A stretch of DNA of 64,000 nt from Escherichia phage AV124: the sequence record OR352954, one strand, 5' to 3'. A model generated the notes under the pieces. It was not told where the DNA came from, made no database searches, and was given only the letters and a program-made list of their open reading frames with translations. The position numbers and the translations under genes are program-made. Shown one piece after another: positions 4,440 to 60,738 of the stretch (the first letter of the stretch is position 1; each line of letters starts with the position of its first letter).

Positions 4440-6431
4440 ATGATAATCGAGCGTAATGAGAAGAAGGTAGAAGTTAGTACCAACGTCAAACGCTATCAAG
4501 CTGGTATCGCGATCAATGCTGAAACTTTCAGTATCTTGATCGATGGTATTTATGAGGACAAGATCCTTGCTGCCTGTCGTGAACCCCTGTTCAATGCGGT
4601 AGATGCACACACAGAAGCCGGATGCCGGGACAAACCGATTATCATCCACTCCCCAACGGACTTGGAACCGTGGTATTCTGTCAAGGATGGTGGTATTGGG
4701 ATGGACTTTGACATGGTTACCCAGACCTTCATGATGCTGGGATCGTCCACTAAACGTGAATCCAACGATCTGATCGGTGCGAAAGGTATTGGTTCCAAGG
4801 CCCCGTTCACCGTTACGGACATGTTCAGTGTCATCTCTATCAAAGATGGTACTAAAACTGTGTACTCTGTTCATAAAGACCAAGGTATTCCTGAGGTTGT
4901 TCCTCTTCACGAGTCTAAAACCATAGAAGAAAATGGTGTTGAAATCAAATTCAACGTTGATCCGACAGAGACTGAGAAATACCGCCGTGCAATTATTAGT
5001 TGCCTGCGTTATGCTAAGTTCCCTTACGAGATCAATGACCCGTTTGTGACTTCATCTATTCGAGACCGTACCTACCCGGTGCAGTATACGTTCAAAGATG
5101 AAGAATCTGGTTGGATGCTGGAAATGTATTCGTCGGTATCTAACAACGCCGATAGCGTTGTGGTTATGGGACAACAGCCATACAAGTCAAAGTTTCTGAG
5201 CAATAACCCTGAATGGCCTTTAATGATGGTTTCCATTCCGATCGGGGATTGTGACGTAAACCCAGGACGTGAATGGACTATCGAGGGTAAGAATGACCGT
5301 GGATTCGAAGAGCGTCTTAAGGCATTTGTCCAGACTGCCCTTGATCGTCGTGGTGAAGAAATCTATCATGAACTCCGTAAGCTTTCAAATCTGGCTGATG
5401 TATTAGCTTATATGAAGCGGGTAGGTGGTTGGTTTGCCACTAAATATGGTGCAAAGTACATCGCAGAACTCTTCGCAGAGCACACTAACTCTTTGAATAT
5501 TAAAGAGTGCGTGACTTATAATGGTCATGGTGAAAAGCGGAGGATGGATAAGACATACTCTTACACAGACATGATGAACGGCTTCCACCTTGTCTACAAC
5601 GATATTAATAAACTTGTTCGTAGCCGTTGTAATCAGTTATTTGATGTAACAGGCAAGGCCGTCTATCTGACGGACAATCTTGGTGTGGCACAAATGTGTG
5701 ATAATCCATTCTTTGCGGGAATGGTCCATAAGCTGTCGGATTTGGAAAAGCGTCCAGCATCGAAATCGGATAAAAAGTATGGCGGATATAGCCTGTATGA
5801 ACCAGGGCATCCAGTATGGATCATTGAGCAGAGTGGAGCTATTAGGAAAACACGTATCTCCCGTGCGGAATTTGATGATATCAAATATGCCATGGTCTAT
5901 TCTGGTGGTCAGGCACGAGGGACTTGTGACCTTGGGTCTACGGCGTACCTTTCTAACCGTCATCAACCGGAGACCTTCTTGTCAGATCTTGGTATTGATG
6001 ATAAATTATACATCGTACCTTTAAACCGAGTGAGTTGGCTGGATGATGATGTTAGGATGATTACACAGGACGACCTTTATAAGGTTGCAAGTTCAAACCT
6101 GTTGGATTATCATCTTAGTCAGTTAACCAGACAGCGTGAGTATCGCTCTCTCTTGGACGACTTAAAGGGAATAGGTGTAGAGGTTGTCAAAGATCCTGAA
6201 TACAAGCAAAAGGTTAATATGGCTAACACTCTTTACAATATTAAAGGTTATTATAGTGCAGAAAGAACTGCGAAGAGAATCATCAATGGACGTATTCGTG
6301 TTGGGAAAAGTCTGATTAACAAGGTAAAAGAGCGTTACCCGTTGCTGAAACACGTCCCGATGCAACATTTTAACTCACCAGAGGTGGTTGAGTACCGTAA
6401 ATTTATTGATAGCAAAGGAGAAAATAAATGA
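4440..6431 (+). CDS. rIIA: rIIA-like protein (GHKL ATPase N-terminal domain)
   Basis: GHKL-type boxes 'FNAVDAH' and 'GIGMD...GAKGIGSKAPF'; 663 aa; immediately upstream of rIIB-like gene with ATGA overlap. Confidence 0.65.
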   Translation: MIIERNEKKVEVSTNVKRYQAGIAINAETFSILIDGIYEDKILAACREPLFNAVDAHTEAGCRDKPIIIHSPTDLEPWYSVKDGGIGMDFDMVTQTFMMLGSSTKRESNDLIGAKGIGSKAPFTVTDMFSVISIKDGTKTVYSVHKDQGIPEVVPLHESKTIEENGVEIKFNVDPTETEKYRRAIISCLRYAKFPYEINDPFVTSSIRDRTYPVQYTFKDEESGWMLEMYSSVSNNADSVVVMGQQPYKSKFLSNNPEWPLMMVSIPIGDCDVNPGREWTIEGKNDRGFEERLKAFVQTALDRRGEEIYHELRKLSNLADVLAYMKRVGGWFATKYGAKYIAELFAEHTNSLNIKECVTYNGHGEKRRMDKTYSYTDMMNGFHLVYNDINKLVRSRCNQLFDVTGKAVYLTDNLGVAQMCDNPFFAGMVHKLSDLEKRPASKSDKKYGGYSLYEPGHPVWIIEQSGAIRKTRISRAEFDDIKYAMVYSGGQARGTCDLGSTAYLSNRHQPETFLSDLGIDDKLYIVPLNRVSWLDDDVRMITQDDLYKVASSNLLDYHLSQLTRQREYRSLLDDLKGIGVEVVKDPEYKQKVNMANTLYNIKGYYSAERTAKRIINGRIRVGKSLINKVKERYPLLKHVPMQHFNSPEVVEYRKFIDSKGENK

Positions 6432-7663
6432 GCAATCTTTTTAAATCCCGTGCAGATGCTCGTGTTTGTGCTGCAAGTCGTGGTATGAAAGTTGTGGACC
6501 GTGGTGTATCTCCGGCGGTCCTGGCAGAGGGGCGTTGGATGGTTGTCCCCAAAGACAGTATTGGTGCTTCCCCGGAAAAGACGATTTCCTTCGATATGGA
6601 AACTTACCCTGCGCCAACTGCTTCTATGTTCTTTGCGAGTCGGGGAGAAGCCCGAGCATTCTCTAAGACTGTACAGAATGCGAAGATTATCGATCATGCA
6701 AAGACAACAGCAGGACATGACAAAGAGGAGGGGGTTGTCAAGGACCTTGGCAAGCGTGGTAAGCGCTGGGAAGTGGTGTTCGTAGTTTCTGATGTAGAAG
6801 TGAGCATTACTGTTCCTCAGCTTCCAGAACCTACACCTGTGCCTATTAAGATTTCGGTTGTTGATGACACGAAAGCTGATCCCATTGTCATCATGACACC
6901 AGGCAACGTTTCCATCACACTTCCCGATGGAACTATTCATACTCTGGGCAGTAACAGCGAAATCTTTAACGACGTTGGTATGTTACTGTTAAACAACAAG
7001 ATCGACGAAGCCGTAGCTCTTATTGAGGCGGGAATCGCTGCAAAAGCTGAGGTGGCAATCGATCTTGGACCGGATATGAAGCTACTCGACGGTGTTCTAT
7101 ACTGGCACGGCATCAAACAAGAAAGCGGTATTGCTCGCCGTATTGTTTCGGATATCGAGACCGGGAAGTTCGATAACCGTTATGTTGAGTTCATGCGTAA
7201 ACTGATGCTCAACCCTTCTTACAAATCGGTTGAAATGCTGTACGACTTCCTGGAGCATAACAAGTTTGAGATCCTGGAGAATGGCAACATCTTGGCCTAC
7301 AAGGGGCTTAAACGCACTGAGAATGGTCCTCGTGACTGGTTCACAGGCTTGGTCCCTAACTGGGCTAACACCACCGTCACGATGCCAAGAAACATGGTTG
7401 AAGATGACCCAACCAAAGCTTGTAGTCAAGGGCTGCACATCGCTTCCAAGGAATATGCCCGCGATTATGGCAATGTGGTTGAGGTTTCTGTTGACCCGGC
7501 AGACATTGTTAGCGTACCATATAACTACAATAACAAGAAATGCCGATGCTGCCGCTATGAAGTATTGACAGGAAAAGAAAAGCCAGCAGGTGCTCCTGAT
7601 GTTATTGTTGTGGGTGTAAGGGGTGCTATCCTGGACGAAATTTATCTCGATAAGGAGGATTAA
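6428..7663 (+). CDS. rIIB: rIIB-like protein
   Basis: Position directly after rIIA with start/stop overlap; C-terminal 'CSQGLHIASKEYARDYG...VDPADIVSVPYNYN' resembles rIIB family as I recall it. Confidence 0.55.
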   Translation: MSNLFKSRADARVCAASRGMKVVDRGVSPAVLAEGRWMVVPKDSIGASPEKTISFDMETYPAPTASMFFASRGEARAFSKTVQNAKIIDHAKTTAGHDKEEGVVKDLGKRGKRWEVVFVVSDVEVSITVPQLPEPTPVPIKISVVDDTKADPIVIMTPGNVSITLPDGTIHTLGSNSEIFNDVGMLLLNNKIDEAVALIEAGIAAKAEVAIDLGPDMKLLDGVLYWHGIKQESGIARRIVSDIETGKFDNRYVEFMRKLMLNPSYKSVEMLYDFLEHNKFEILENGNILAYKGLKRTENGPRDWFTGLVPNWANTTVTMPRNMVEDDPTKACSQGLHIASKEYARDYGNVVEVSVDPADIVSVPYNYNNKKCRCCRYEVLTGKEKPAGAPDVIVVGVRGAILDEIYLDKED

Positions 7664-13933: not shown

Positions 13934-16306
13934 ATTAAAGGTCTGTTTATACTGGATAACGAGGCCGATGGCCTGTTAGACGAAGTAACTAAGTACCATT
14001 GTACTTTGCTGAAAGAATTCGGAGTCAACAACTGGAACCTGTTTTTAGACCCCGCACACCCTGAATATGAAAGCGCTGTAGCCTTTGCCAGGAGCAAGAA
14101 GGATGCTAATCTTACAATTCGTTCATACGACGAGCTGGAAAGCTTCCTGAAGACTTGTAGAGCCATTGCGTGTCACAACCTGTTTGGTTATGACCTGCGC
14201 CTGTGGAAGAAGTTATCGGGCATTGAATATGATATGTTCAAAGACCCGAAGTGCATGGGGACGATTGGGGATACACAGGTAAATCTCTACGACACCCTCT
14301 CTATGAGCCGTGTGCTTTATCCTGACCGTCCATTACCTAACGGTTGCCCTGACTCTGTTCTTAACCCGGTAACCGGGAAGCGAGACCGTGTAGGTCCTCA
14401 TGGCCTGTTGGCCTGGGGCTACCGCGTAGCAAACAAGAAAGTTCAGATCGATGACTGGCGTAACCAACCCTTGTGGGAATACGTTAATCGTGTCTGGGAA
14501 GACGTTTTAATCAACGAGTTAGTATGGCAATCCCTGATCGATGAATCTACAGGTGCTCGCTGGCCTGATGACAAGCAGTTCATGTACAAAGATAAACCGG
14601 AAGGGATGCGGCAGATCAACTGGAAGAACGCGCTACGCCGCCGTATGTTGACTGATTACCTGATGATTGAGCAAGAAATTCAGGGTGTTCCATTCAATAA
14701 GCATGAAGCTGAAAAGCTGAGAGACCGTATTGATGTAATGATGAAAGAGATTGAGGAAGAAGTAGAACCTCAACTCCCGCTCAAAGAGATGACGAAGTCT
14801 CAACAGCCAAAATTCCCTGCTAATCCTTTTGATGGTGCAGGAAGAATTTCCCATCACGGGTGGAATTGGTTAGAATACAAGCTGGGATATCCAGTTAATC
14901 GTGAAGCGCTGGAATTCAAAGGTCCACCGAAGACGGCGTTTAAAGGTAACGGTGATGTAAGTGCAGCAGGGGAAAGATACTGTATCCAGAATGGTGTTGA
15001 AGACCCGGCAGCGATGCCAGACTTCATTAGAAGCCAGATAAAGAAAGAGAATACCCTTGTCCCATTGCCACCAGACCTAATGGAAAAGGCAATTGCCGAT
15101 CTTCGTGCTGGAAAGATGCCAGACCTGATGGTTCCGATGAAGATCTCGAACCAGGACGACATCAAGAAGTACCTGATCCGCGATGCGGGATGGAAACCAA
15201 CGCTCTGGCGTGTTAAAGATGTGACGAAAGACCAGTTCAAAAAGACCCGCGATGATGCGGAGGTTGATGGTCTGGTGCGTAAGTACATCGAAGAACTTGG
15301 AGAGTCCGAGTATAAATCTCTGATTCTTGAGCACTTAAATAATAGTGACGCAAAGTTCAATATCTCGGAAAACAAGTTCGACCATCGTCATGGTTCTGAT
15401 CGTGTTTACGAGGAGGTCTTCAAGAAGTTCCGACGCAAAGCTCGTCAACTGCCGACTTCACCACAGTTGAAGGATAACTTTGGCAAGCTGTGTCCTAACC
15501 TTGAAGTTATCGATGTTCACTTGGCTAAACAGATTGTTAAGTGGCTGTCATTACGTAACCGTCGTTCTGTTCTCGACCCTATTGACGAGGATAAAAACGA
15601 TACAGGGCTGTTGAATCATCCTCGCCTGGCGATTGATGGAAAACTTCCAGCTCGTTTCTCTGGTATCACTAACACCGGGCGTTGTAAGCACACCATTTGT
15701 GCAAACATGCCTAAGCCAGATCCTAAGGTGTTGTTGGGTAAAGAGATGCGTGGTCTCTGGGGTGTGACCGATGAATATTACCAGGTCGGTATCGATGGTT
15801 CTAACCTCGAAGGTATGATCGCGGCATGGGGTGCATATCAGTTCGATGGTGGTGAATACCTCCGTATCATGGAAAGTGGAGATGCCCACGCACGAAACGC
15901 CGAGGCATACACCAAAGCTTCTGGTACTCTGGTAACGCGTAACGGTGGTAAAGGGGTAACCTACGGCATCATGTATGGTGCTCAGGCAGCTAAGATTGCA
16001 GCAATGCTTCACATTTCCCTTGACAAGGCACAGGCGGTAATCGATGCTTTCTGGGATAGTAACTTTGGTTTGAAAGGTCGTAAGGAATGGCTTGAAAACT
16101 TCTGGGAAGCAACGGGTAAACGTTATATCCCTGGTCTCGATGGTCGTAAGATTTGGACCCGTTCTAAGCACTCTCTTCTGAATGCTTTCCAGCAAAACGG
16201 TGGTGCATCTCTATTCGATCTGGTTGGTATCCTGCTTCACTGGGAACTGATCAAACGTGGCTGGTATGATGATGACGTTCGTCGCCTGATTTACTACCAT
16301 AAATAA
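13934..16306 (+). CDS. DNA polymerase, family A, T7 gene 5-like; N-terminal segment (3'-5' exo + motifs A and B), ends just before motif C
   Basis: Exo I 'FILDNEADGLLDEVTKYHC' (cf. T7 'IVSDIEANALLESVTKFHC'), 'GPHGLLAWGYR', motif A 'GIDGSNLEG', motif B 'KGVTYGIMYGAQ'; no ATG/GTG/TTG between upstream TGA (13919) and Exo I, so start set at ATT 13934 after AGGAGG. Confidence 0.75.
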   Translation: MKGLFILDNEADGLLDEVTKYHCTLLKEFGVNNWNLFLDPAHPEYESAVAFARSKKDANLTIRSYDELESFLKTCRAIACHNLFGYDLRLWKKLSGIEYDMFKDPKCMGTIGDTQVNLYDTLSMSRVLYPDRPLPNGCPDSVLNPVTGKRDRVGPHGLLAWGYRVANKKVQIDDWRNQPLWEYVNRVWEDVLINELVWQSLIDESTGARWPDDKQFMYKDKPEGMRQINWKNALRRRMLTDYLMIEQEIQGVPFNKHEAEKLRDRIDVMMKEIEEEVEPQLPLKEMTKSQQPKFPANPFDGAGRISHHGWNWLEYKLGYPVNREALEFKGPPKTAFKGNGDVSAAGERYCIQNGVEDPAAMPDFIRSQIKKENTLVPLPPDLMEKAIADLRAGKMPDLMVPMKISNQDDIKKYLIRDAGWKPTLWRVKDVTKDQFKKTRDDAEVDGLVRKYIEELGESEYKSLILEHLNNSDAKFNISENKFDHRHGSDRVYEEVFKKFRRKARQLPTSPQLKDNFGKLCPNLEVIDVHLAKQIVKWLSLRNRRSVLDPIDEDKNDTGLLNHPRLAIDGKLPARFSGITNTGRCKHTICANMPKPDPKVLLGKEMRGLWGVTDEYYQVGIDGSNLEGMIAAWGAYQFDGGEYLRIMESGDAHARNAEAYTKASGTLVTRNGGKGVTYGIMYGAQAAKIAAMLHISLDKAQAVIDAFWDSNFGLKGRKEWLENFWEATGKRYIPGLDGRKIWTRSKHSLLNAFQQNGGASLFDLVGILLHWELIKRGWYDDDVRRLIYYHK

Positions 16307-17275
16307 CATTGTGGCTTTGTGAGGTAACTCACATCGAATAACTCCTTTAATTGCTGGGAGGCTAAGGTTGATATTCACTCGATAATAGAGTAAAATACAA
16401 CTATGTTAATCAGCAGCGAAGAGGATCAATGAAAAGTGTAAACTACCACGGATATGTGGTTTACGAAGACGGAACCATTATCGGAAGGCGCGGGAAACCG
16501 ATGCAAAAGGTAGATAATGGGAGGGGCTACCTAATTGTAAGTCTCTACCTTAATAAAAGAACAACGACAAAAGCTGTGCATGTTTTAGTGGCTGAGTGTT
16601 TCGTTCCCAACCCGGATAACCTCCCAGAGGTTGACCACAAGGATGGTGATAAGACCAACAACCACTACACCAACCTCCGCTGGGTAACAAGAGGTAAGAA
16701 CATAGAACATTGCTACACGTTGGAAGGTAGAAGTGCAACAGGTATTGCCAATGCAAACAGTAAGTTGTCAGAGGGAGAAGTGGAGAAAATCTGCTACCTC
16801 TTGCAGGAAGGCTTTAGTCAAGCTGCCATCCGAGACATGGGCTACCCATACGGAACAGTTAGGGCCATCAAGCAGAGACGACAATGGCTGCATATATCAT
16901 CTTCGTATCATTGGTCTTAACGTTCAGAGGCCAGCCGAAAGGCGTAGACGAGCGAGTGCCGTCGAAATGGGGAGCATCCTGAAAAGGATGGTGATATGGT
17001 CCGATCCTACGTGAAAACGTATGGCAACACGTAATGGTGTGGGCGAGATTAACGACCTCGCTAAACTTTTGGATGAATACCAGCTCCAGGTTCCTAAGAA
17101 ATACCTGAAGAAGTGGGAGTTCGACACCCTGGAAGAGGCAACAGCTTTCGTCAAAGAATGGGAAGCAAAAGGCCGGGTATTTGACGGACATGAATGGAGA
17201 AAGGCCGTCAAAGATGACAACGGTGATAAAGTCAAGGATGCGGAAGGCAATACAGTCTACGAAGGTATTTTCGGG
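16301..17275 (+). mobile_element. insertion interrupting the DNA polymerase gene; candidate group I intron carrying an HNH endonuclease ORF (alternative: gene-splitting homing cassette)
   Basis: Polymerase frame stops at 16304-16306 where motif C is expected; conserved C-terminus resumes downstream; possible P1 pairing CCAU(16297-16300)/GUGG(16311-16314); in-frame G-terminated 3' site at 17275. Confidence 0.3.
16429..16920 (+). CDS. HNH homing endonuclease
   Basis: 'VHVLVAECFV...VDHKDGDKTNNHYTNLRWVTRGKN' HNH_3-type motif; C-terminal HTH-like segment. Confidence 0.75.
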   Translation: MKSVNYHGYVVYEDGTIIGRRGKPMQKVDNGRGYLIVSLYLNKRTTTKAVHVLVAECFVPNPDNLPEVDHKDGDKTNNHYTNLRWVTRGKNIEHCYTLEGRSATGIANANSKLSEGEVEKICYLLQEGFSQAAIRDMGYPYGTVRAIKQRRQWLHISSSYHWS

Positions 17276-17419
17276 GACGATGGTAAAATCCACATCCAGT
17301 ATTGCCCTGTTGGTGAAATGGTCGTAAGATGTGTAGAGAAGGCCGCTCGTATCATGGGCAGTCCTGTACATATCACAGGGGCATATCTTACGGGCGCCAA
17401 TTGGGCGCAATGTCATTGA
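17021..17419 (+). CDS. DNA polymerase C-terminal segment (motif C region to C-terminal His)
   Basis: 'IQYCPVGEMVVRCVEKAARIM...ANWAQCH*' matches T7 DNAP C-terminus '...IQVGC..EEIAQVV...NWAICH*'; first ~85 codons lack polymerase similarity. Confidence 0.6.
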   Translation: MATRNGVGEINDLAKLLDEYQLQVPKKYLKKWEFDTLEEATAFVKEWEAKGRVFDGHEWRKAVKDDNGDKVKDAEGNTVYEGIFGDDGKIHIQYCPVGEMVVRCVEKAARIMGSPVHITGAYLTGANWAQCH

Positions 17420-17437
17420 TATATAAGGATATTTTAT

Positions 17438-18073
17438 ATGGAATTATGGAAAGACATCCCCTCTACGGAGGGGAGATACCAAGTAAGTAATTATGGAAGA
17501 ATAAAAAGGCAACGGTATTCTCGCATAAACAGCAATCAAGCAGCAAGTTGGGAGCAAGTATATGAAACAAAGATATTAAAGCCTTCAAAGGACACACACG
17601 GTTACCTACAAGCTTGTTACCTTGTGGAAGGAGAGAGGACTATAGCCCTGGTCCATAGGCTTGTTGCAGAAGCCTTCCTTGCACCGCCAAGTCAAGAGTT
17701 GATAGATGAATGTATGAAGGCTGGTCACAAAGTGGTTCTTGTCAACCACAAGGATGGAAACCCACTTAACAACCATGTTGACAACCTTGAGTGGTGTACT
17801 CCTTCTTACAACAATGAGTATAGTCCCCAAGATTATTCAAATAGGTCTGGGGATAACTGTAAACATGCGGTTCTTAAAGAATCTGATGTTGACAAAATAC
17901 TGGAACTACGTGGTAAAATGAGTCAGCAGGCCATCGCGGATATGTTCGATGTGAAACAGATCACTATCAGCAACATTTTCACCGGAAGGTCTTGGTCTTC
18001 TTATACCGGAATACCTCGCAAAGAGCGTAACAAAGGAAAACGTGCAGCTAAGACCAAACTGTTATCACAATAG
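17438..18073 (+). CDS. HNH homing endonuclease (NUMOD4-like N-terminus)
   Basis: 'WKDIP..EGRYQVSNYGRIK' then 'VHRLVAEAFL...VNHKDGNPLNNHVDNLEW'. Confidence 0.7.
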   Translation: MELWKDIPSTEGRYQVSNYGRIKRQRYSRINSNQAASWEQVYETKILKPSKDTHGYLQACYLVEGERTIALVHRLVAEAFLAPPSQELIDECMKAGHKVVLVNHKDGNPLNNHVDNLEWCTPSYNNEYSPQDYSNRSGDNCKHAVLKESDVDKILELRGKMSQQAIADMFDVKQITISNIFTGRSWSSYTGIPRKERNKGKRAAKTKLLSQ

Positions 18074-18318: not shown

Positions 18319-18347
18319 TTGACACCCGTTTCGAATAGCATTAAAGT
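18319..18347 (+). promoter_or_regulatory. sigma70-like promoter candidate
   Basis: TTGACA (18319-18324), 17-nt spacer, TAAAGT (18342-18347), A/T-rich upstream. Confidence 0.35.
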
Positions 18348-18405
18348 GTATCACATGAAGACGAGAGATCTCGCTTCAAAACAACCTCACAAACAGGAGA
18401 ACGAA

Positions 18406-20436
18406 ATGACCGCAAAATATGAAACCGTACCTTATGCTGACTTCGTAAAAGCTCTGAAAGCTCAGTTCGCTGTCATGCAAGCGCTGGGTGCGCTTTACAC
18501 GGTCGATGTACCGAAAGATGAACTGTACGACCTGTACCTTGATTCTTTCCCGGAAGGCACCAACCTGATGTATAAAGAGCGCCGTGAATACGACTGCAAC
18601 TGCTGCAAGAGCTACATCCGTACTCTGGGCCGCGTAGTTGCTATTCACAACGGCAAGCTGGTATCTATTTGGGACGTTAAAGTTGGTGGTTATTACCAAG
18701 TAGTTGCCGATGCGATGAAAGCGCGTGTTGAAAGCTCCGAGATCCGCGATCGCTTCTTCCACTTCGAAGGCCGCGTTGGTACTGAGAGCAACGTAGTTCT
18801 CCTGGAAAATGGGAAAACCAAAACCTGGACCCACTTCCATCAGGCCCTGCCTCGCGAACTGGTTAAACGTGGTGAAGATATCCCTTCTGCCCTGGGTGAG
18901 TACCGTGACAACGCAACTGTGCTGGCACGTTCTCTGAAAGATATCGATATGGACTCTGCCGAAACGGTAATGGACCTGATCAACCAAGGCTCTCTGTACC
19001 GTGGTGATGAGAAAAAGCACATTGTTGCTGCCTTTATTAAGGCGAAACGTGCATACGACAAAACGCCGGAAGACCAGCGAATGAACTTCTGCTGGAAACA
19101 AAGTGAAACGCTGGGTAGACTGGGTCGCTTCCGTAATGATGTCATCGGAACACTGATGAGCGATCTGGCAGAAGGTGTTGATCTTGAAGCCGCAGTGAAG
19201 TCCTTTGAAGACAAAGTCTCAGGGACCAACTACAAACGTACTACTGCTCTGGTAACTCCGGGCATGATCAAGGCAGCACAAGAGAAAGTTGAAGCCCTCG
19301 GCTTGACTGAATCTCTGGCACGTCGCTTTGCGGTGACCTCTGACCTGACGATCAACAACGTGTTGTTTGCTGACCGTTCTGCAAAGGCCCAAATGAACGT
19401 ATTCGAGCAACTGGCAGCGTCAACCAAAAACGCGCCTAAGTCACTGTCGAAAGTGGAAGAGATCAGCATTGAGGATTTCATCAACAACGTTCTACCGAAA
19501 GCGGACACTATCGAAGCGCTGGTTGAAGGTCGTCTGACACCGAACCTGATGAGCTTGGTTGCCCCGGCAAACGCAGGTGCTCCTAACCTGTTCAAATGGG
19601 ATAACGGCTTCTCCTGGTCGTATAATGGCGAAGTAACTGACTCCATCAAGGAGCGTGTGAAAGCCGCTGGCGGCAGCGTGACTGGTGACCTGCGTGTTTC
19701 GTTGTCTTGGTACAACAGTGATGACCTCGACCTGCACGTATTCGAGCCTGGTGGCGGTCAAATTTACTTCGGTAACAAACGTGGTCGCTCAACGGGTACG
19801 CTGGATGTGGATATGAATGCCTATGGCAAGTCAGACGCACACCATCCGGTTGAGAACGTTACGTGGGAAAATGAGCGTAATATCACGGAAGGTGTTTACA
19901 AGGTTGTTGTTAACAACTATAATAAGCGCATGACTGATCGCGTTGGCTTCGAAGTCCAGATGGAATACAAAGGCCAAGTGTTCAACTTCGCATACCCGCA
20001 AGCTTTGGGTAATAGCAAGAGCCAGACCGTTGTAACATTTAAGTATTCTCGTGCGAAAGGTGTTGAAATTGTAGACAGCATCGGGCATACTAAGCAATCT
20101 AAAGAAGTGTGGGGCGTCTCTACCGAGACCTTCCAGAAAGTTTCTCTGGTGCTAAATTCTCCTAACTTCTGGGATGGTCAGACCAAAGGTAACAAACACT
20201 ACTTCTTTATGCTGGAAGGTTGCATTAACCCTGACGATACTCGTGGCTTCTACAATGAGTATCTGCGTGACGAGCTGCATGAGCATCGTAAAGTGTTCGA
20301 AGTGTTGGGTTCCAAGCTCAAAGCTGAACACTCCGCTGATCAACTGAGCGGCCTGGGCTTCTCGTCTACCCAGCGTAATGAGTTGGTTGTGAAGGTGACT
20401 GGTTCTTTCAACCGCACCCTGAAGATTAAGTTCTAA
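18406..20436 (+). CDS. large hypothetical protein (676 aa), unknown family; E. coli-optimal codon usage
   Basis: ATG 18406 after AGGAGA SD; strong CTG/CGT/GGT/AAA codon bias unlike neighbouring phage genes; no P-loop or recognisable catalytic motif found. Confidence 0.6.
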   Translation: MTAKYETVPYADFVKALKAQFAVMQALGALYTVDVPKDELYDLYLDSFPEGTNLMYKERREYDCNCCKSYIRTLGRVVAIHNGKLVSIWDVKVGGYYQVVADAMKARVESSEIRDRFFHFEGRVGTESNVVLLENGKTKTWTHFHQALPRELVKRGEDIPSALGEYRDNATVLARSLKDIDMDSAETVMDLINQGSLYRGDEKKHIVAAFIKAKRAYDKTPEDQRMNFCWKQSETLGRLGRFRNDVIGTLMSDLAEGVDLEAAVKSFEDKVSGTNYKRTTALVTPGMIKAAQEKVEALGLTESLARRFAVTSDLTINNVLFADRSAKAQMNVFEQLAASTKNAPKSLSKVEEISIEDFINNVLPKADTIEALVEGRLTPNLMSLVAPANAGAPNLFKWDNGFSWSYNGEVTDSIKERVKAAGGSVTGDLRVSLSWYNSDDLDLHVFEPGGGQIYFGNKRGRSTGTLDVDMNAYGKSDAHHPVENVTWENERNITEGVYKVVVNNYNKRMTDRVGFEVQMEYKGQVFNFAYPQALGNSKSQTVVTFKYSRAKGVEIVDSIGHTKQSKEVWGVSTETFQKVSLVLNSPNFWDGQTKGNKHYFFMLEGCINPDDTRGFYNEYLRDELHEHRKVFEVLGSKLKAEHSADQLSGLGFSSTQRNELVVKVTGSFNRTLKIKF

Positions 20437-20442
20437 TTAAAC

Positions 20443-20458
20443 AGCCCCTTCGGGGGCT
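20443..20458 (+). terminator. stem-loop (AGCCCC-TTCG-GGGGCT) after 676-aa gene; weak U-tract
   Basis: Perfect 6-bp stem with TTCG tetraloop 7 nt after stop. Confidence 0.3.
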
Positions 20459-20486
20459 AATATTGAAATCATAGAGGAGATAAAAG

Positions 20487-20882
20487 ATGACCACTACTAA
20501 CCTGTTCGAAGTTGCCACCCGTAAAAAACTGCGTTTTGCAAGTCCGAAAGGTCTACTGACCACAGAAGATCTGTGGGATCTGCCGATGACTGGTAATACC
20601 AGCCTAGATACGGTTTCCAAACTGGCTAACCGTGATGTGAAAGCATCTGCTGAAGAAAGTTTCGTTGTCGAGGCCAGTGCTGTAAATGGCGAAGCAAACC
20701 TGAAGCTGGATATCCTGAAGTACATCATCTCGGTGCGTAAAGCGGAGATCGCGGATCGCCAGGCAGCGAAAGAGAAGGTTGAGCGTAAGCGTAAACTTCT
20801 GGACCTGCTGGCAGAGAAGGATAACGAGAAAGATGCAGCGATGACTCGTGAAGAAATCCTGAAAGAGCTGGAATCTCTGTAA
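20487..20882 (+). CDS. hypothetical protein (131 aa, C-terminal charged coiled-coil-like region)
   Basis: ORF track; GAGGAG SD upstream; same host-like codon usage as upstream gene. Confidence 0.5.
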   Translation: MTTTNLFEVATRKKLRFASPKGLLTTEDLWDLPMTGNTSLDTVSKLANRDVKASAEESFVVEASAVNGEANLKLDILKYIISVRKAEIADRQAAKEKVERKRKLLDLLAEKDNEKDAAMTREEILKELESL

Positions 20883-20892
20883 TCTGCCCGCC

Positions 20893-20913
20893 AAGGCCCT
20901 TCGGGGCCTTTTT
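20893..20913 (+). terminator. intrinsic terminator
   Basis: AAGGCCC-TTCG-GGGCCTT hairpin followed by TTTTT. Confidence 0.6.
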
Positions 20914-20927
20914 GCATTGGAGAAAAA

Positions 20928-21287
20928 ATGAAAGTAACTGGCAAACAAACTGTTGTACAGAACGTGGAAGTAGATATCTCTGATGAAGAGATCATGAATA
21001 TTGTCAAGGCACAAACACCAGACTACCTCGCAGATGTCCTCACCAAAGAACTGCTGAGGAACTTCATCTATAGCTTGCCAGCAGATTTTACTGGTGAGCG
21101 GGCCGTGTGGGAAACACGTAAAAGAGGATATGAACCGTTTCTTGTACTTGTCCATGTAGACGCTTGGTGGGACTACCACAACAATGTTGGTGTGGATGAA
21201 GAAGTCAGACCGCTCACCGAAGAAGAAACGGCAAAATATAATATGATTTGCGGTTTGCGGGACTACATTAAGCATCTGCAAAAATAA
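20928..21287 (+). CDS. hypothetical protein
   Basis: ORF track, 119 aa. Confidence 0.45.
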   Translation: MKVTGKQTVVQNVEVDISDEEIMNIVKAQTPDYLADVLTKELLRNFIYSLPADFTGERAVWETRKRGYEPFLVLVHVDAWWDYHNNVGVDEEVRPLTEEETAKYNMICGLRDYIKHLQK

Positions 21288-21355
21288 TTCAAAAGCCTCT
21301 TGACTTCATGGTTGAGGGGCTTTATTGTTATGGAAGCTAAATAACCTGGGGGGTG

Positions 21356-21967: not shown

Positions 21968-23056
21968 ATGACGATTACTCGCGGCCTTATCTTCGGGAAG
22001 TTTGCACCCCTGACCAACGGGCATATTGAATTCATTCGCCAGGCGGCTTCGCAGGTTAGTGCTCTGTACCTGTTCCTGTCATATGATCAGAAATTCGTTG
22101 ATGCACAACCAGAATGGATTCGTCCAAAGCTGGGGCTTGCTGATCGTTATCGTGACCTGCTGGATGTTATTGCCGATGAGGGACTTGACAACGTGAAGGT
22201 AGACTACGTTGATGAGTCGAATATCCCAGGATACCCTGAAGGCAGTGCTGCCTATGCAAAACTGATCCGTGAAAAGCAACCGTTCGTTAAGTACGATTTT
22301 GCTTTCTCTTCTGAGCCGGAGTATGAGTCTTACTTCAGTGAGTTCTTCCCTGAAGCGAAGCATGTAGTTATCGACGCAGAACGTAAAGCTGTTCCTATCT
22401 CAGCCACGATGATCCGTAATGATCCGTACAACAACTTCTACAACCTAGCGTGGCCTGCACGTAAGCGCTTCATGAAGAAGGTTGCCATCATTGGTGTTGA
22501 GAGTACGGGCAAGACAACCCTGACAAAACATCTGGCGCATACCTTCGGTGCTGGTTGGATTCCTGAGATCGGACGGCTTATCTGTGAGCGTGAATATCAC
22601 TCCAGTGAGTTCGCAATGTCTCGTGAAGACTACCTGCGTATCGCTATGGAGCACCGCCTGAAGGAGATGGAGTTGGCTGGTTGGGGTGATCGTGGGGTTA
22701 TGTTCTCTGACACCACAAACCTGATCACACACTTCTCTGGTGTTTGTGCTGATAAGATCGACTACGCAGACCTGTTGTTCCGGACACTAAGCCGTGAAGA
22801 GAGCTACAACTTCTATGACCTGTTCCTGCTCCTCACACCAGAGGTTCCGTGGGTTGCTGATCCTCTTCGCTTGCAGGATACACCAGAGAAACGTAAAGAA
22901 ACCCATTCTTTGCTTGACACAATGATCAGAGCATCTTACGATACAAGCAAGGTGGTGGTTATCTCCGGCAGTGATTACGAAGAGCGTACTCAGAGAGCTG
23001 AAGAAGCTGTCCGTAAATTGCTGAATATCAAAGGAGAACAAGATGGATCAAACTAA
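21968..23056 (+). CDS. nadR: bifunctional NMN adenylyltransferase / ribosylnicotinamide kinase, NadR-like (no N-terminal HTH domain)
   Basis: NMNAT motif 'GLIFGKFAPLTNGHIEFI' (cf. NadR 'FGKF.PLH.GH'); kinase P-loop 'VAIIGVESTGKTTL'. Confidence 0.8.
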   Translation: MTITRGLIFGKFAPLTNGHIEFIRQAASQVSALYLFLSYDQKFVDAQPEWIRPKLGLADRYRDLLDVIADEGLDNVKVDYVDESNIPGYPEGSAAYAKLIREKQPFVKYDFAFSSEPEYESYFSEFFPEAKHVVIDAERKAVPISATMIRNDPYNNFYNLAWPARKRFMKKVAIIGVESTGKTTLTKHLAHTFGAGWIPEIGRLICEREYHSSEFAMSREDYLRIAMEHRLKEMELAGWGDRGVMFSDTTNLITHFSGVCADKIDYADLLFRTLSREESYNFYDLFLLLTPEVPWVADPLRLQDTPEKRKETHSLLDTMIRASYDTSKVVVISGSDYEERTQRAEEAVRKLLNIKGEQDGSN

Positions 23057-23468: not shown

Positions 23469-23662
23469 TGGCGATCAAAGTAATCTCCGAAGGTACTCCG
23501 TTTACGGCAACGTGTAAGAGTTGCAGGTCTGTGGTTGAATACAATTACACGGATACCTATGTATATTCCTACACTGTTGCTCGTGGAATGCGGGTAGGTC
23601 ATGGTGCGTACCGCTGCATCACCTGTCCTGTGTGCTCATCAAGGATCAGGCATAATGGCTAA
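23468..23662 (+). CDS. small zinc-ribbon protein
   Basis: 'CKSCRS' ... 'CITCPVC' Cys pairs. Confidence 0.35.
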   Translation: MAIKVISEGTPFTATCKSCRSVVEYNYTDTYVYSYTVARGMRVGHGAYRCITCPVCSSRIRHNG

Positions 23663-24008
23663 GGTGCTCAACTTCTACCACATTGGTAAAGTGATCCCTG
23701 AAAATGCCGAATACATGGGGCGAGCAATGCCCCATCTAGGCCTGAAGCAATCTAAATTCGCTAACCCATATAAGTTGTCGAAGGATGAGCCTCGTGGAGC
23801 CACCATTGAGCGCTATCGCGTGTGGTTGTGGCAACAGATCCGTTCTGGGAAAATTACTATTCAAGATCTTCTTGACTTGGATGGTAAAGACCTTGTATGC
23901 TTCTGTAAACAGCCGAACAAAGAGGTGGCATGTCATTGTGATGTGATACTTGCGGCAATCGAATGGGCAAAACAGAGGAAGACAAATGGCAATTCATGCA
24001 AAAAGTAA
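23655..24008 (+). CDS. DUF4326-family protein
   Basis: 'YMGRAMP...SKFANPYKL...IERYRVWL...LDGKDLVCFCK...CHCDVIL' matches my recollection of the DUF4326 pattern. Confidence 0.5.
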   Translation: MAKVLNFYHIGKVIPENAEYMGRAMPHLGLKQSKFANPYKLSKDEPRGATIERYRVWLWQQIRSGKITIQDLLDLDGKDLVCFCKQPNKEVACHCDVILAAIEWAKQRKTNGNSCKK

Positions 24009-24722: not shown

Positions 24723-25424
24723 ATGATGAATCTATACGTAAAAACAACCTGGACAGACTTCTATGGTTGGACAAAACTCGAATACCTTTGGCTTCTAATC
24801 TGTTCTGCATCCATTGCAACGGTCTCTATCGTTACAGGTGGTACGGTGGTGGAGTTTATTTCCTCCGTCACAGGCATCGTCGGTGCGATTCTGGTTGCGA
24901 AAGGTAAACTTTCCAGCTACTATTGGGGCTTCATTGCCACGGTTCTGTATGCATATATCTCTTTCACGTACAAGTTGTACGGTGAGACGATTATGTACAC
25001 CCTGTTGTTCACCCCCATGCAGGTCATTGGCGGGGTGATCTGGGCGCGTAAGTTAACCGTCTCTGCGGATGGTGAGCGTGCGGATGTCATAAAGAAATAT
25101 CTGACCACAAAACAGCGCTGGATTGTTGGTATCGGGACATTGGTGACGATCGGATTATACGCCGAGTTCGTTAGCCTATTGAAAGGAAGTATGCCGGGTC
25201 TAGATTCTGCGACAGCAATCCTGTCAGTTCTAGCAACCTACCTGATGATGGTTCGTTATGCAGAACAATGGCTGATTTGGCTACTGGTGAACACTGTTGC
25301 AATTGTTATGTGGGTACAAGCTACGATTCATCATCAAGGAGCTGGTTCTGCAATTTTGGCTATGTGGGTCACATTCTGGCTCAACTCTCTTTATGGTTGG
25401 TATAAGTGGAGAAAGAATGGCTAG
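24723..25424 (+). CDS. pnuC: nicotinamide riboside transporter PnuC-like
   Basis: ATG 24723 after AGGAG; polytopic membrane protein ~233 aa with PnuC-like C-terminal 'WLNSLYGWYKW'. Confidence 0.7.
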   Translation: MMNLYVKTTWTDFYGWTKLEYLWLLICSASIATVSIVTGGTVVEFISSVTGIVGAILVAKGKLSSYYWGFIATVLYAYISFTYKLYGETIMYTLLFTPMQVIGGVIWARKLTVSADGERADVIKKYLTTKQRWIVGIGTLVTIGLYAEFVSLLKGSMPGLDSATAILSVLATYLMMVRYAEQWLIWLLVNTVAIVMWVQATIHHQGAGSAILAMWVTFWLNSLYGWYKWRKNG

Positions 25425-59284: not shown

Positions 59285-60298
59285 TTACGCGAAAGTACCA
59301 GTCAGTTTAACAACCAGCTCTGGGCGGCAGTTAACTGTCAGGAAGGAAGTTTCAGACTCTACCTTCTCTTCACGCAGGTAAGCAGAAGATTTGTACCACA
59401 GGTACAGTTCTTGTGCCGGAGTATTCGCTTCACGAACATCATCTGCTGGCGCATAGTGGATCTGGAACATGTTGTCGATACCGCGCGGCAGCATGTAAGC
59501 TTCACCGTCCGGGATGTAACCGGAGATATCTTCGATGTACAGAACGTTTTTGTGAACGAAGGAACGGTTGTTAGCGTTTTCCTGACCTTCACCAAGACGA
59601 CGACGCAGCGGCTCTTGAGTAGAGCTGTAGTATTGGTATGCGTTCATGATCAGCGGGTGAGCGATGAAAGCAGAGAACCATTTACGAGAAGCCAGGACTA
59701 CGATGTCGTAGTTGTTTCCGTTGTCACCAGCGTTGTCGATGATGAATGCACGACCATCGTTTTCGAGCAGGTCAGACGGGTCAACTGCAACGTCAGTGAA
59801 ATCTACGTTAACAACTTCCTGGGTAACACCCCATTCGGTGAAGTAGTTATACTGAGCGGTCGGGTCCTGCGGTGCCCAAGATTTACCCATGATTGCCTGA
59901 AGCATTGCTTTTTCTTTAAGCTGTTCATGAGAAATACGGATACGACGAACAACACGTTCAACTACGTCCTGTACAGATTTAGGAGCATCCGCAGTGAAAT
60001 ATTTACGGAAGTTCTGTACGTCTGCCGGAGTGATCTGACGATCCAGCGGGAAGAACGGGATGTTGAAGTTTTTCAGTTGGGCCTTTTCAGTACCAACGTA
60101 GTTACGTTCACCCTGACGACGACGAGCTGGGAAGTCGGTTACAACTTCGTCAACACGCTCGATCTGGGCGATAGTAGAGACACCGTGATAAGCCTCGAAA
60201 AGGTTCATGTTGGTGATCATACGGTACTGACGAGGTACGATTTCCAGAGTTGCGCCTAGATCGACGATCTGGAAATCATTAGTGCGTACTACTGCCAT
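59285..60298 (-). CDS. major capsid protein (lambda gpE-like family suspected)
   Basis: 337 aa; follows scaffold and decoration genes; followed by strong terminator; pattern resembles Phage_cap_E proteins. Confidence 0.6.
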   Translation of the reverse strand: MAVVRTNDFQIVDLGATLEIVPRQYRMITNMNLFEAYHGVSTIAQIERVDEVVTDFPARRRQGERNYVGTEKAQLKNFNIPFFPLDRQITPADVQNFRKYFTADAPKSVQDVVERVVRRIRISHEQLKEKAMLQAIMGKSWAPQDPTAQYNYFTEWGVTQEVVNVDFTDVAVDPSDLLENDGRAFIIDNAGDNGNNYDIVVLASRKWFSAFIAHPLIMNAYQYYSSTQEPLRRRLGEGQENANNRSFVHKNVLYIEDISGYIPDGEAYMLPRGIDNMFQIHYAPADDVREANTPAQELYLWYKSSAYLREEKVESETSFLTVNCRPELVVKLTGTFA

Positions 60299-60318
60299 TA
60301 TTTTCTCCTTGGTGTAGA

Positions 60319-60738
60319 TTAGATAGACGTTACTGGGATCTCAACGGAGCCGTCGTAATATTTATCAGTGATCTTCAGACCTTTGGCCTCAAGAGCAGCG
60401 ATAGCAGCAGCGTTGATAGCAGTAGTACCGTCAGCAAAGAACAGTTTGGATTTGTTCAGGGTCAGACCACGAACAGCCACAACGAAGTTGTATTTAGTAC
60501 CAACAACAAACTCACGAGGAGCATCGTATGCAGGAACCAAATCGCGGTCGGTGATTACACCAAATGCGCTTGCAGCGTCGGAAGTTGCAGCCAGAGTACC
60601 ATCAGACTTGACGATCATCCCAGCCTTCAGCCCTGCGGAATAAGTGATTTCCATTTCCAGGAAGCTGTAGCCCTGATCAGAAGAATCAACTTTACCCAGG
60701 ACGATGTCAGAGTAGTACCCTTGAATCGGATTAGCCAT
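60319..60738 (-). CDS. head decoration protein (gpD-like)
   Basis: 139 aa immediately upstream of capsid gene; 'GTLAATSDAASAFGVI' resembles gpD-type core. Confidence 0.4.
   Translation of the reverse strand: MANPIQGYYSDIVLGKVDSSDQGYSFLEMEITYSAGLKAGMIVKSDGTLAATSDAASAFGVITDRDLVPAYDAPREFVVGTKYNFVVAVRGLTLNKSKLFFADGTTAINAAAIAALEAKGLKITDKYYDGSVEIPVTSI

Follow-up and report, generated by a model that had tools for sequence, protein, structure and literature searches.

The closest described parallels to the locus treated here are partial ones. In phage T5, the pre-early pair A1/A2 reportedly consists of a large protein and a ~15-kDa partner, encoded by adjacent genes and expressed before the late genes, and the two are said to associate; A1 is predicted to be a metallophosphatase-type nuclease. 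Here we analyze a two-gene module in a 64,000-nt stretch of Escherichia phage AV124 (OR352954; hereafter, the window). Gene A (18406..20436, + strand) encodes a soluble protein of 676 amino acids (aa; 75.9 kDa), the long form of Pfam DUF8224 / PHROG 1735, and gene B (20487..20882, + strand) encodes a partner of 131 aa (14.7 kDa; PHROG 2018). The likeness to T5 A1/A2 is an analogy: no sequence similarity was detected, a fold of the A1 type was not seen in A, and T5 is absent among the organisms listed for the 552 phage records that carry A. One domain of A is a β-sandwich with the fold of TerD (Klebsiella TerD, 2KXT; SCO6318, 2QZ7) at 14% identity, but it is inserted in a larger protein, and no Ter operon partners lie nearby. 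For the core domain of the pneumovirus transcription antiterminator M2-1 (5NKX), identity is 11%; the Cys and His residues of A sit in a separate α/β domain with a spacing unlike that of M2-1, and A shows no evidence of RNA binding. No characterized system matches the module, and its function is undescribed, as the first-pass annotation of this DNA had proposed; homology to a known housekeeping enzyme was sought and none was found. The reading we favor, with a probability of roughly 0.4, is that A and B form an abundant two-subunit, metal-dependent, enzyme-like accessory complex that acts on a universal substrate.

Gene B accompanies gene A in every locus with enough flanking DNA. We compared 85 phage loci, in which A is 42–99% identical. 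A homologue of B is present in 82 of these, and the remaining three are truncated, giving 82/82 among loci with sufficient flanks. For loci in bacterial and archaeal assemblies, B is found in 74 of 80, and the other six have little or no sequence past A (74/74 informative). B usually lies 9–40 nt downstream of A, although a few loci have an insert of up to 940 nt, and in one (L052) B is upstream. BLAST clustering of phage and bacterial neighbors revealed no third conserved gene, and a Pfam census of 149 phage and 140 bacterial neighbors gave a mixture of replication, RNA-repair, NAD-salvage and defense genes. These data bear out the earlier description of a self-contained two-gene unit.

The family is widespread. 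A HMMER scan for A returned 6,921 clusters (50% identity) at E ≤ 1e-3 and 1,241 at E ≤ 1e-30, and the best 150 clusters are almost all ~650–715 aa in length. By tblastn, A is present in 552 of 50,697 phage records, nearly all listed ones labeling it hypothetical. Carriers include Ackermannviridae (CBA120 orf153), phiCbK-like Caulobacter phages, Ralstonia phiRSL1, Bacillus BCP78 and Bc431v3, Microcystis Ma-LMM01 and Cellulophaga phi4:1, and among phages of Klebsiella, Bacillus, Caulobacter and Microcystis the protein is 40–45% identical over its full length. Megablast of 18319–20913 matched 35 phage records, 32 of which cover at least 80% of the query at ~97–98% identity; the matches are ~145-kb myophages of Klebsiella, Raoultella or Proteus, in genus Mydovirus of subfamily Vequintavirinae, to which the window belongs as well. 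In Erwinia phages, A retains 73% amino-acid identity. The type member of the Vequintavirinae, rV5, has a polymerase that is 63% identical, and neither A nor B was found in the 88 kb examined, including the matching post-polymerase position. The module is therefore accessory, as had been supposed from its location. Full-length A also occurs on 117–360-kb non-mobilizable "plasmids" of Clostridioides difficile, Shinella, Vagococcus, Bacillus and Paenibacillus (H86–H93; e.g. NZ_CP037807.1, 48528–50561), which are probably phage-plasmids or episomal large phages.

The codon usage of both genes is exceptional for the window. We calculated the codon adaptation index (CAI; Sharp-Li, E. coli weights) for 82 open reading frames (ORFs). 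Values for A (0.495) and B (0.534) rank third and fourth and compare to a mean of 0.284 (s.d. 0.087); the adjoining HNH genes score 0.21. Only two capsid-like genes, 59285–60298 (0.70) and 60319–60738 (0.58), lie higher. In A and B, 74% of the Leu codons are CTG, versus 31% in ten other + strand genes. Thus, the host-preferred codon usage noted earlier stands out across the whole window. GC content at third codon positions (GC3) is 0.54 in A, compared to ~0.44 for a typical window gene. Because the preferred codons include optimal ones ending in T and A (CGT, GGT, ACT, AAA), the bias reflects translational selection rather than a host-like GC content. The same pattern is seen in nine comparison loci of enterobacterial phages (from Erwinia, Serratia and several ~149–161-kb phage contigs), where A (0.46–0.58) and B (0.54–0.74) exceed the neighbor mean (0.27–0.41) in 9/9 cases. 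In phiMAM1 (L012), one neighbor (0.53) scores above A (0.46). In all ten loci, the CAI of B is larger than that of A.

The capsid-like pair at 59285–60738 (– strand) comprises the most codon-adapted genes of the window and serves as the benchmark for high expression here. It encodes a 337-aa major-capsid-like protein and, just upstream of the capsid gene, a 139-aa product that is probably a decoration or scaffold protein.

The first-pass annotation had taken the codon usage to mean either very high expression or recent acquisition. High expression is supported by the CAI values, here and in the nine other loci. For recent transfer from a host chromosome, the elevated GC3 of A is the one feature that fits, and several observations argue against it. 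Optimal codons are preferred, including T- and A-ending ones, rather than codons that are merely GC-rich. The module is conserved throughout Mydovirus (97–98% nucleotide identity) and in the Erwinia phages, and nine other phage lineages show the same bias. Moreover, when 5.8 billion proteins were searched, the close or full-length homologues among the matches listed were all on phage-sized or short contigs, none with an enterobacterial chromosomal name. In comparison with P8734, 39 of the 41 differing codons in A are synonymous and 2 nonsynonymous, and 5/6 are synonymous in B, a pattern indicative of strong purifying selection. Recent acquisition is effectively excluded on these grounds.

High CAI is otherwise confined to capsid-type genes in this DNA, which raises the possibility that A is a virion or assembly protein. 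However, A belongs to the replication block on the + strand, whereas the structural genes form a distant – strand block from ~29.2 kb onward, and no structural-protein match was obtained. Lone copies of the pair also occur among ordinary genes of Micromonosporaceae (see below). Expression data for phage Ma-LMM01 point the same way. The homologues gp014 and gp013 are middle-class genes, with log2 FPKM (fragments per kilobase per million) of 10.7 and 11.1 at 3 h, compared to 11.2–11.8 for ribonucleotide reductase and 10.6 for RecA (PMC5780444 Table S3). Like ribonucleotide reductase, RecA and ThyX, they have reached a plateau by 3 h, whereas head and sheath genes rise only later, peaking at 6 h (PMC5780444). 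A structural role is thus effectively excluded as well, albeit with slightly more residual probability than recent transfer.

The module forms a single transcription unit of promoter, gene A, non-terminating hairpin, gene B and terminator. A candidate promoter of the sigma-70 type (TTGACA, 17 nt, TAAAGT; 18319..18347, + strand) matches 10 of 12 consensus positions, where it had been noted before. Promoter-like matches are no more frequent in the region than expected (20 found versus 17.9 ± 4.7), and hence the motif by itself would be no evidence. What lends it weight is conservation across a diverged flank: the –35/–10 block is kept in the Mydovirus relatives L008 and KNP2, although the sequence upstream differs in L008. 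The block is not alignable in Erwinia phages. An AGGAG ribosome-binding site lies 8 nt 5' of the ATG of gene A; the program-made ORF list starts the gene at GTG 18316, but alignments with homologues begin no earlier than about residue 10 of the 676-aa protein. Gene B is preceded by GAGGAG. Both ORFs lie where the first-pass annotation had them.

Two hairpins had been called terminators. The first (20443..20458, + strand), located between A and B, has a 6-bp GC-rich stem and a UUCG loop (ΔG –12 kcal/mol, z = –2.7). It is followed by UAAUAUUG, and because no U-tract follows the stem-loop, it is not a canonical terminator but a read-through or RNA-stabilizing structure; a terminator scan called it on the – strand only. 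The hairpin is identical in L008, and Erwinia phage L010 carries a different hairpin in its place. The second (20893..20913, + strand) is a genuine intrinsic terminator in shape, with a 7-bp stem (20893–20910), a UUCG loop and U5 (ΔG –14.5), although its folding energy alone is ordinary (z = –1.0). Erwinia-phage relatives have a terminator at the matching position with different stem sequences. We hold with high confidence that this operon anatomy, together with abundance, obligate pairing, mobility and accessory status, is correctly described.

The junction of A and B varies in length. In the window, P8734 and L008 it is 50 nt with the hairpin (20437–20486), while most Mydovirus relatives have a 229-nt spacer containing an extra 70-aa ORF (KP12_76, MKTGLQPTPVTDRL...; L002 8118–8330), and insertions of 174–940 nt are seen in other lineages. 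Because different lineages carry inserts at the same point, the junction is a hotspot for small mobile inserts. Directly after the terminator of B is a 119-aa ORF (20928–21323; PHROG 6273, function unknown), which ends at a 14-bp hairpin (21292–21323; ΔG –19.1 kcal/mol, z –4.6), likely a further terminator.

The family is catalogued but not characterized. A matches PHROG 1735 with E 6.8e-298 (residues 9–676 on profile positions 3–673), and B matches PHROG 2018 with E 4.9e-44 (residues 3–131 on positions 2–132). PF26675 (DUF8224) is precomputed on 120/120 of the A homologues listed, including one that is 99% identical; membership was taken from this annotation, as the Pfam-A set searched here did not contain the model. 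The DUF8224, PHROG 1735 and PHROG 2018 entries are placeholders without function, structure or literature. As far as we have seen, these catalogues record neither the obligate A–B pairing nor the existence of a long and a short form, and they mention neither the copies on bacterial chromosomes nor the codon adaptation that recurs between lineages. Searches of Pfam-A, NCBIfam, PADLOC and PDB sequences, with single sequences and with a profile of 69 sequences, returned nothing above noise (cohesin SA-1, CHIPS, DUF3078). Against the PADLOC-DB v2 anti-phage defense models, A had no match and the best for B was E 0.33. No extra domains were found in longer family members. The earlier statement that the 676-aa protein has no assignable motif therefore holds at the level of sequence, but it overlooked the TerD-like domain and the existing family entries. 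Neither sensitive profile searches nor structure searches with both proteins led to a known function.

Deposited product names offer a rival explanation, namely that A is a phage DNA-directed RNA polymerase, as recorded in GenBank for Ro1, KNP2, BIS47, Seu621 and Gloob. Apart from these names, the idea has only the motif LDVDMN, which superficially recalls a DxD metal motif. This is the sole acidic motif of its kind, it lies inside the TerD-like sandwich, and the short form of the protein lacks it. There was no match to Pfam RNA_pol (PF00940) or any other polymerase family, no polymerase among PDB sequence or fold matches, and no double-psi β-barrel with a DxDxD loop among the structure matches; the Seu621 paper gives no basis for the name. 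This explanation is effectively excluded, and we give it the lowest credence of those considered. The "SAP domain" label (KP12 annotation) fared no better, since no Pfam SAP match at E ≤ 1 occurs in A or recurrently among 69 relatives. Both GenBank labels are unsupported and should be corrected. A PARP-like identity, raised by a weak PARP_reg match in 2/69 relatives and by the NAD genes nearby, was also rejected: hhalign gave a probability of 0.2%, no ADP-ribosyltransferase fold was seen, and no profile similarity to PF02877 (the PARP regulatory helical domain) was found. Separately, the deposited annotation of L001 (OY979426.1, 12114–26911) is out of register, its RNA ligase and phosphoesterase labels not matching the 676-aa ORF, and OY757067 shows similar mismatches.

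AlphaFold2 yielded confident models of both proteins, with a mean predicted local distance difference test (pLDDT) of 89.5 for A and 87 for B. Residues 1–150 of A (18406..18855, + strand) form an N-terminal α/β domain without a fold match. In it, C64 and C67 are near-invariant and H143 is invariant, and all three are kept in the bacterial copies and in the short form. The C64-x-x-C67 motif (nt 18595–18606) lies at the N-terminus of helix 65–74 and may, with H143, constitute a site for metal binding or redox chemistry. Model confidence is lowest over residues 51–70 (pLDDT 58–77), which would fit a missing metal. An all-helical domain follows (residues 151–300; 18856..19305, + strand), with invariant R199, G248 and R278 and near-invariant G200, E268, N275 and Y276. 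Residues 301–406 (19306..19623, + strand) make up the first half of an α/β core, with invariant R306, R307, D313, W398 and Y406, and residues 561–676 (20086..20433, + strand) the second half, with SPNxW (585–589), H598, RGFYNE (613–618) and QLSGLGF (646–652). Between the two halves sits the inserted β-sandwich (residues 407–560; 19624..20085, + strand), in which D440, D442, D467, D469, E483 and N484 are invariant.

The sandwich is the single domain of A with a confident match among solved structures, its fold being TerD-like; Foldseek of the whole model against the PDB gave nothing below E 1e-3. Weak Pfam matches to DUF2135 and the proprotein-convertase P-domain, each in 3/69 family members (best E 0.004 and 0.0015), reach none of the curated thresholds, are absent from A itself, and are presumed to fall on the sandwich region. 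The pattern L-x-V-x-L-x-W...D-L-D-L-H...E-P-x-G presumably resembles that of YfaP. Sandwiches of the DUF2135 (YfaP-type) and P-domain kinds have no assigned mechanism that would transfer to A. The model of B begins with a small α-β-β-α unit, which carries the motif R-x-K-L-R-F ... E-D-L-W-D-L-P, and continues as a long helical hairpin; a structure search with B gave only generic helical matches. No transmembrane segment is predicted in either protein, and both should be soluble.

A shorter form of A provides a natural dissection of the family. This ~540-aa form also carries PF26675 but aligns to profile positions 3–400 and 557–661, and hence includes both halves of the α/β core and lacks the sandwich. 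It is found in Pamexvirus, in Xanthomonas and Stenotrophomonas phages, in Serratia jumbo phages, and on Pigmentiphaga and Kouleothrix chromosomes. In 5/5 such loci, no B homologue was present within ±5–8 kb. Because B occurs only with the sandwich-bearing form, it would appear to work with the inserted sandwich, most likely by docking on it or acting through it.

Bacterial chromosomes also carry the pair. In 36 loci of Micromonosporaceae (one genome per species), including Micromonospora, Actinoplanes, Salinispora, Catellatospora and Phytohabitans, A and B form a lone cassette. In a sample of 15, A is 84–97% identical, and the A–B spacing is ~30 nt in most. Flanking genes are unrelated between species and ordinary where checked (LuxR, sigma factors, short-chain dehydrogenase, papain-type protease). 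Upstream of A there is an invariant block, GGAAAnnnGTTTC ... TAGGAT. The conserved sequence, GCCGGAAAynyGTTTCTCC...TAGGATCTCCGGTGATCAAGGAGGA, lies ~70 nt 5' of A (locus ~5920–5990) in every Micromonosporaceae locus aligned (L119, L135, L145 and others). This upstream region looks like a candidate promoter with an imperfect palindromic operator; an Rfam scan upstream of the bacterial copies for riboswitches or other known RNAs found no family. Because 41 of 45 invariant or near-invariant residues of A are retained in copies from Salinispora, Micromonospora, Enhygromyxa and Azorhizobium, the biochemical function is probably the same in cells and phages.

The TerD-like fold, with its invariant acidic cluster, and the occurrence of a two-gene cassette at variable chromosomal sites raise another possibility, that of a Ter-like, Ca2+-responsive stress or conflict system. 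Phages would use it to shield the infected cell, through superinfection exclusion or protection against envelope or ion stress, and bacteria as a defense or stress cassette. Some bacterial loci are near GmrSD, MazF or reverse-transcriptase genes, one adjoins a vWA-TerF-like gene, and Ter components have been proposed as phage weapons against superinfecting phages (Iyer et al. 2021, PMC7824862). On the other hand, A bears no sequence relation to TerD: profile comparison by hhalign, with a TerD sequence verified against 2kxt at E 1e-86, gave a probability of 0.3%, and no Pfam TerD (PF02342) match at E ≤ 1 was seen in A or 69 relatives. Neither a conserved TerB, TerC or TelA partner nearby nor a membrane segment nor a PADLOC match was found. 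The short form lacks the sandwich, so this domain cannot be the core function, and the family is far better conserved than conflict systems usually are. We consider a Ter-like role improbable.

A stronger competitor is a non-catalytic role, in which A and B would act stoichiometrically, either coating or organizing phage DNA or RNA, or serving as a sponge that removes a small signaling or defense molecule by mass action. Abundant phage proteins are typically DNA-binding (T4 gp32, phi29 p6) or are sponges and mimics (Ocr, Tad, Acb). The codon adaptation of A and B is second only to that of the capsid-type genes, and the higher CAI of B in all ten loci suggests stoichiometric amounts. In many phages the module lies among replication, RNA-repair and NAD-salvage genes, and A contains the Cys/His motif and many invariant arginines. 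Yet the isoelectric points are near-neutral to acidic (6.5 for A, 5.7 for B), and searches for a fold that binds nucleic acids (OB, helix-turn-helix, helix-hairpin-helix or any other) found none. Sponges described so far are small and fast-evolving, unlike a 76-kDa protein that is 40–45% identical across phyla, and a sponge for an immune signal is not what one would expect to find in 36 loci of Micromonosporaceae as a regulated cassette in single copy. On balance, a stoichiometric binder is rather unlikely, though it deserves serious consideration.

We prefer the enzyme-like complex because the density of invariant polar residues resembles that of an enzyme or specific ligand site more than that of a non-specific coat. 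The module is highly conserved in phages whose hosts are Gram-negative, Gram-positive or cyanobacterial and on Actinobacterial chromosomes, moves as a unit between unrelated genomes and is dispensable in rV5, properties that favor a self-sufficient accessory enzyme-like system. In the proposed mechanism, A (76 kDa) and B (15 kDa) would be made in bulk during the DNA-replication (middle) period and would assemble into a soluble cytoplasmic complex. The conserved core of A would contribute a metal or redox site of the Cys-x-x-Cys...His type, along with numerous invariant residues (Arg, Tyr, His, Asp and Glu). The acidic cluster of the sandwich is a candidate for Ca2+ binding of the kind known in TerD-type domains, and B, as a helical hairpin, may dock on or work through this insert. 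The substrate would be universal (a nucleic acid, nucleotide-derived metabolite or ion) rather than a host-specific protein, and the module might support the nucleic-acid metabolism of the phage or of a cell under stress or attack.

Several observations weigh against this reading. Searches by sequence, profile and structure recognized neither a catalytic nor a nucleic-acid-binding fold in any domain, nor a cofactor motif, and in the searchable literature (PF26675, DUF8224, CBA120 orf153) no experimental work on the family was found. Expression at a very high level would be at least as fitting for a stoichiometric binder as for an enzyme. The mRNA of the Ma-LMM01 homologues is ordinary for middle genes, not exceptional (PMC5780444 Table S3). 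The likeness to TerD is one of fold only, the link between B and the insert draws on only five short-form loci, and no A–B fusion protein occurs among 269 family members. With these points counted, we rank the enzyme-like complex first, the binder or sponge a close second and the Ter-like module third. A physical A–B complex, metal binding, contact of B with the sandwich and an enzyme-like role on a universal substrate are each tentative.

The phages covered by the CRISPRi-ART fitness screens probably lack the module. The combination of properties seen here is rare: a very broad distribution (hosts among Proteobacteria, Firmicutes and Cyanobacteria) at 40–45% identity, strict co-inheritance with a partner, selection for high expression in one lineage after another, and independent retention as a lone, apparently regulated cassette across many species of one bacterial family. 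Together, these point to a basic biochemical activity rather than a lineage-specific trick. A bolder possibility, which we regard as doubtful, is that DUF8224 and its partner constitute an ancient, unrecognized two-subunit metalloenzyme or ligand-binding machine, in which both the fold and the activity would be new and the substrate would be a universal nucleic acid or nucleotide. If so, this machine would be common to large virulent phages, phage-plasmids and Actinobacteria, and its bulk production by phages would serve to sustain genome replication, perhaps through the repair or neutralization of an undescribed type of damage or defense product. Once found, the function would annotate thousands of genes at once and could reveal a new step in nucleic-acid maintenance or attack resistance of large phages and some bacteria. 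The system is tractable, with two soluble proteins, a cultivable phage, and natural controls in rV5 (no module) and the short form (no partner).

The surroundings of the module were accurately described at the outset as a polymerase/HNH region on one side and an NAD+ module on the other. Upstream of A, the + strand encodes a rIIA/rIIB-like pair, a PIF1-type helicase, a DnaB-type primase-helicase and a family-A DNA polymerase interrupted by HNH-type genes; downstream of B are a NadR-like enzyme and a PnuC transporter. The polymerase appears split (14006–18073). Its N-terminal ORF (14006–16306) is a partial match to PF00476, and HNH-type ORFs at 16429–16920 and 17438–18073 (CAI 0.21) flank a 132-aa ORF (17021–17419). 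Relatives annotate small "DNA polymerase" fragments in this region, and the rV5 polymerase consists of gp223 and gp220, which suggests an interruption of the homing-endonuclease or intron/intein type. At 4440–7663, a 663-aa protein with HATPase_c_3 precedes a 411-aa protein; this pair matches rV5 rIIA/rIIB in position and is better read as such than as a topoisomerase. The replication block is ringed by repair and salvage genes: a Macro domain (460–951), an RNA ligase (1944–2930; CAI 0.44), a NadR-like nicotinamide mononucleotide adenylyltransferase/kinase (21968–23056), DUF4326 (23601–24008) and PnuC (24723–25424). Relatives also annotate NAMPT, phosphoribosyl pyrophosphate synthetase and Sir2, suggesting that these genes make up an NAD+-reconstitution, counter-defense repertoire.

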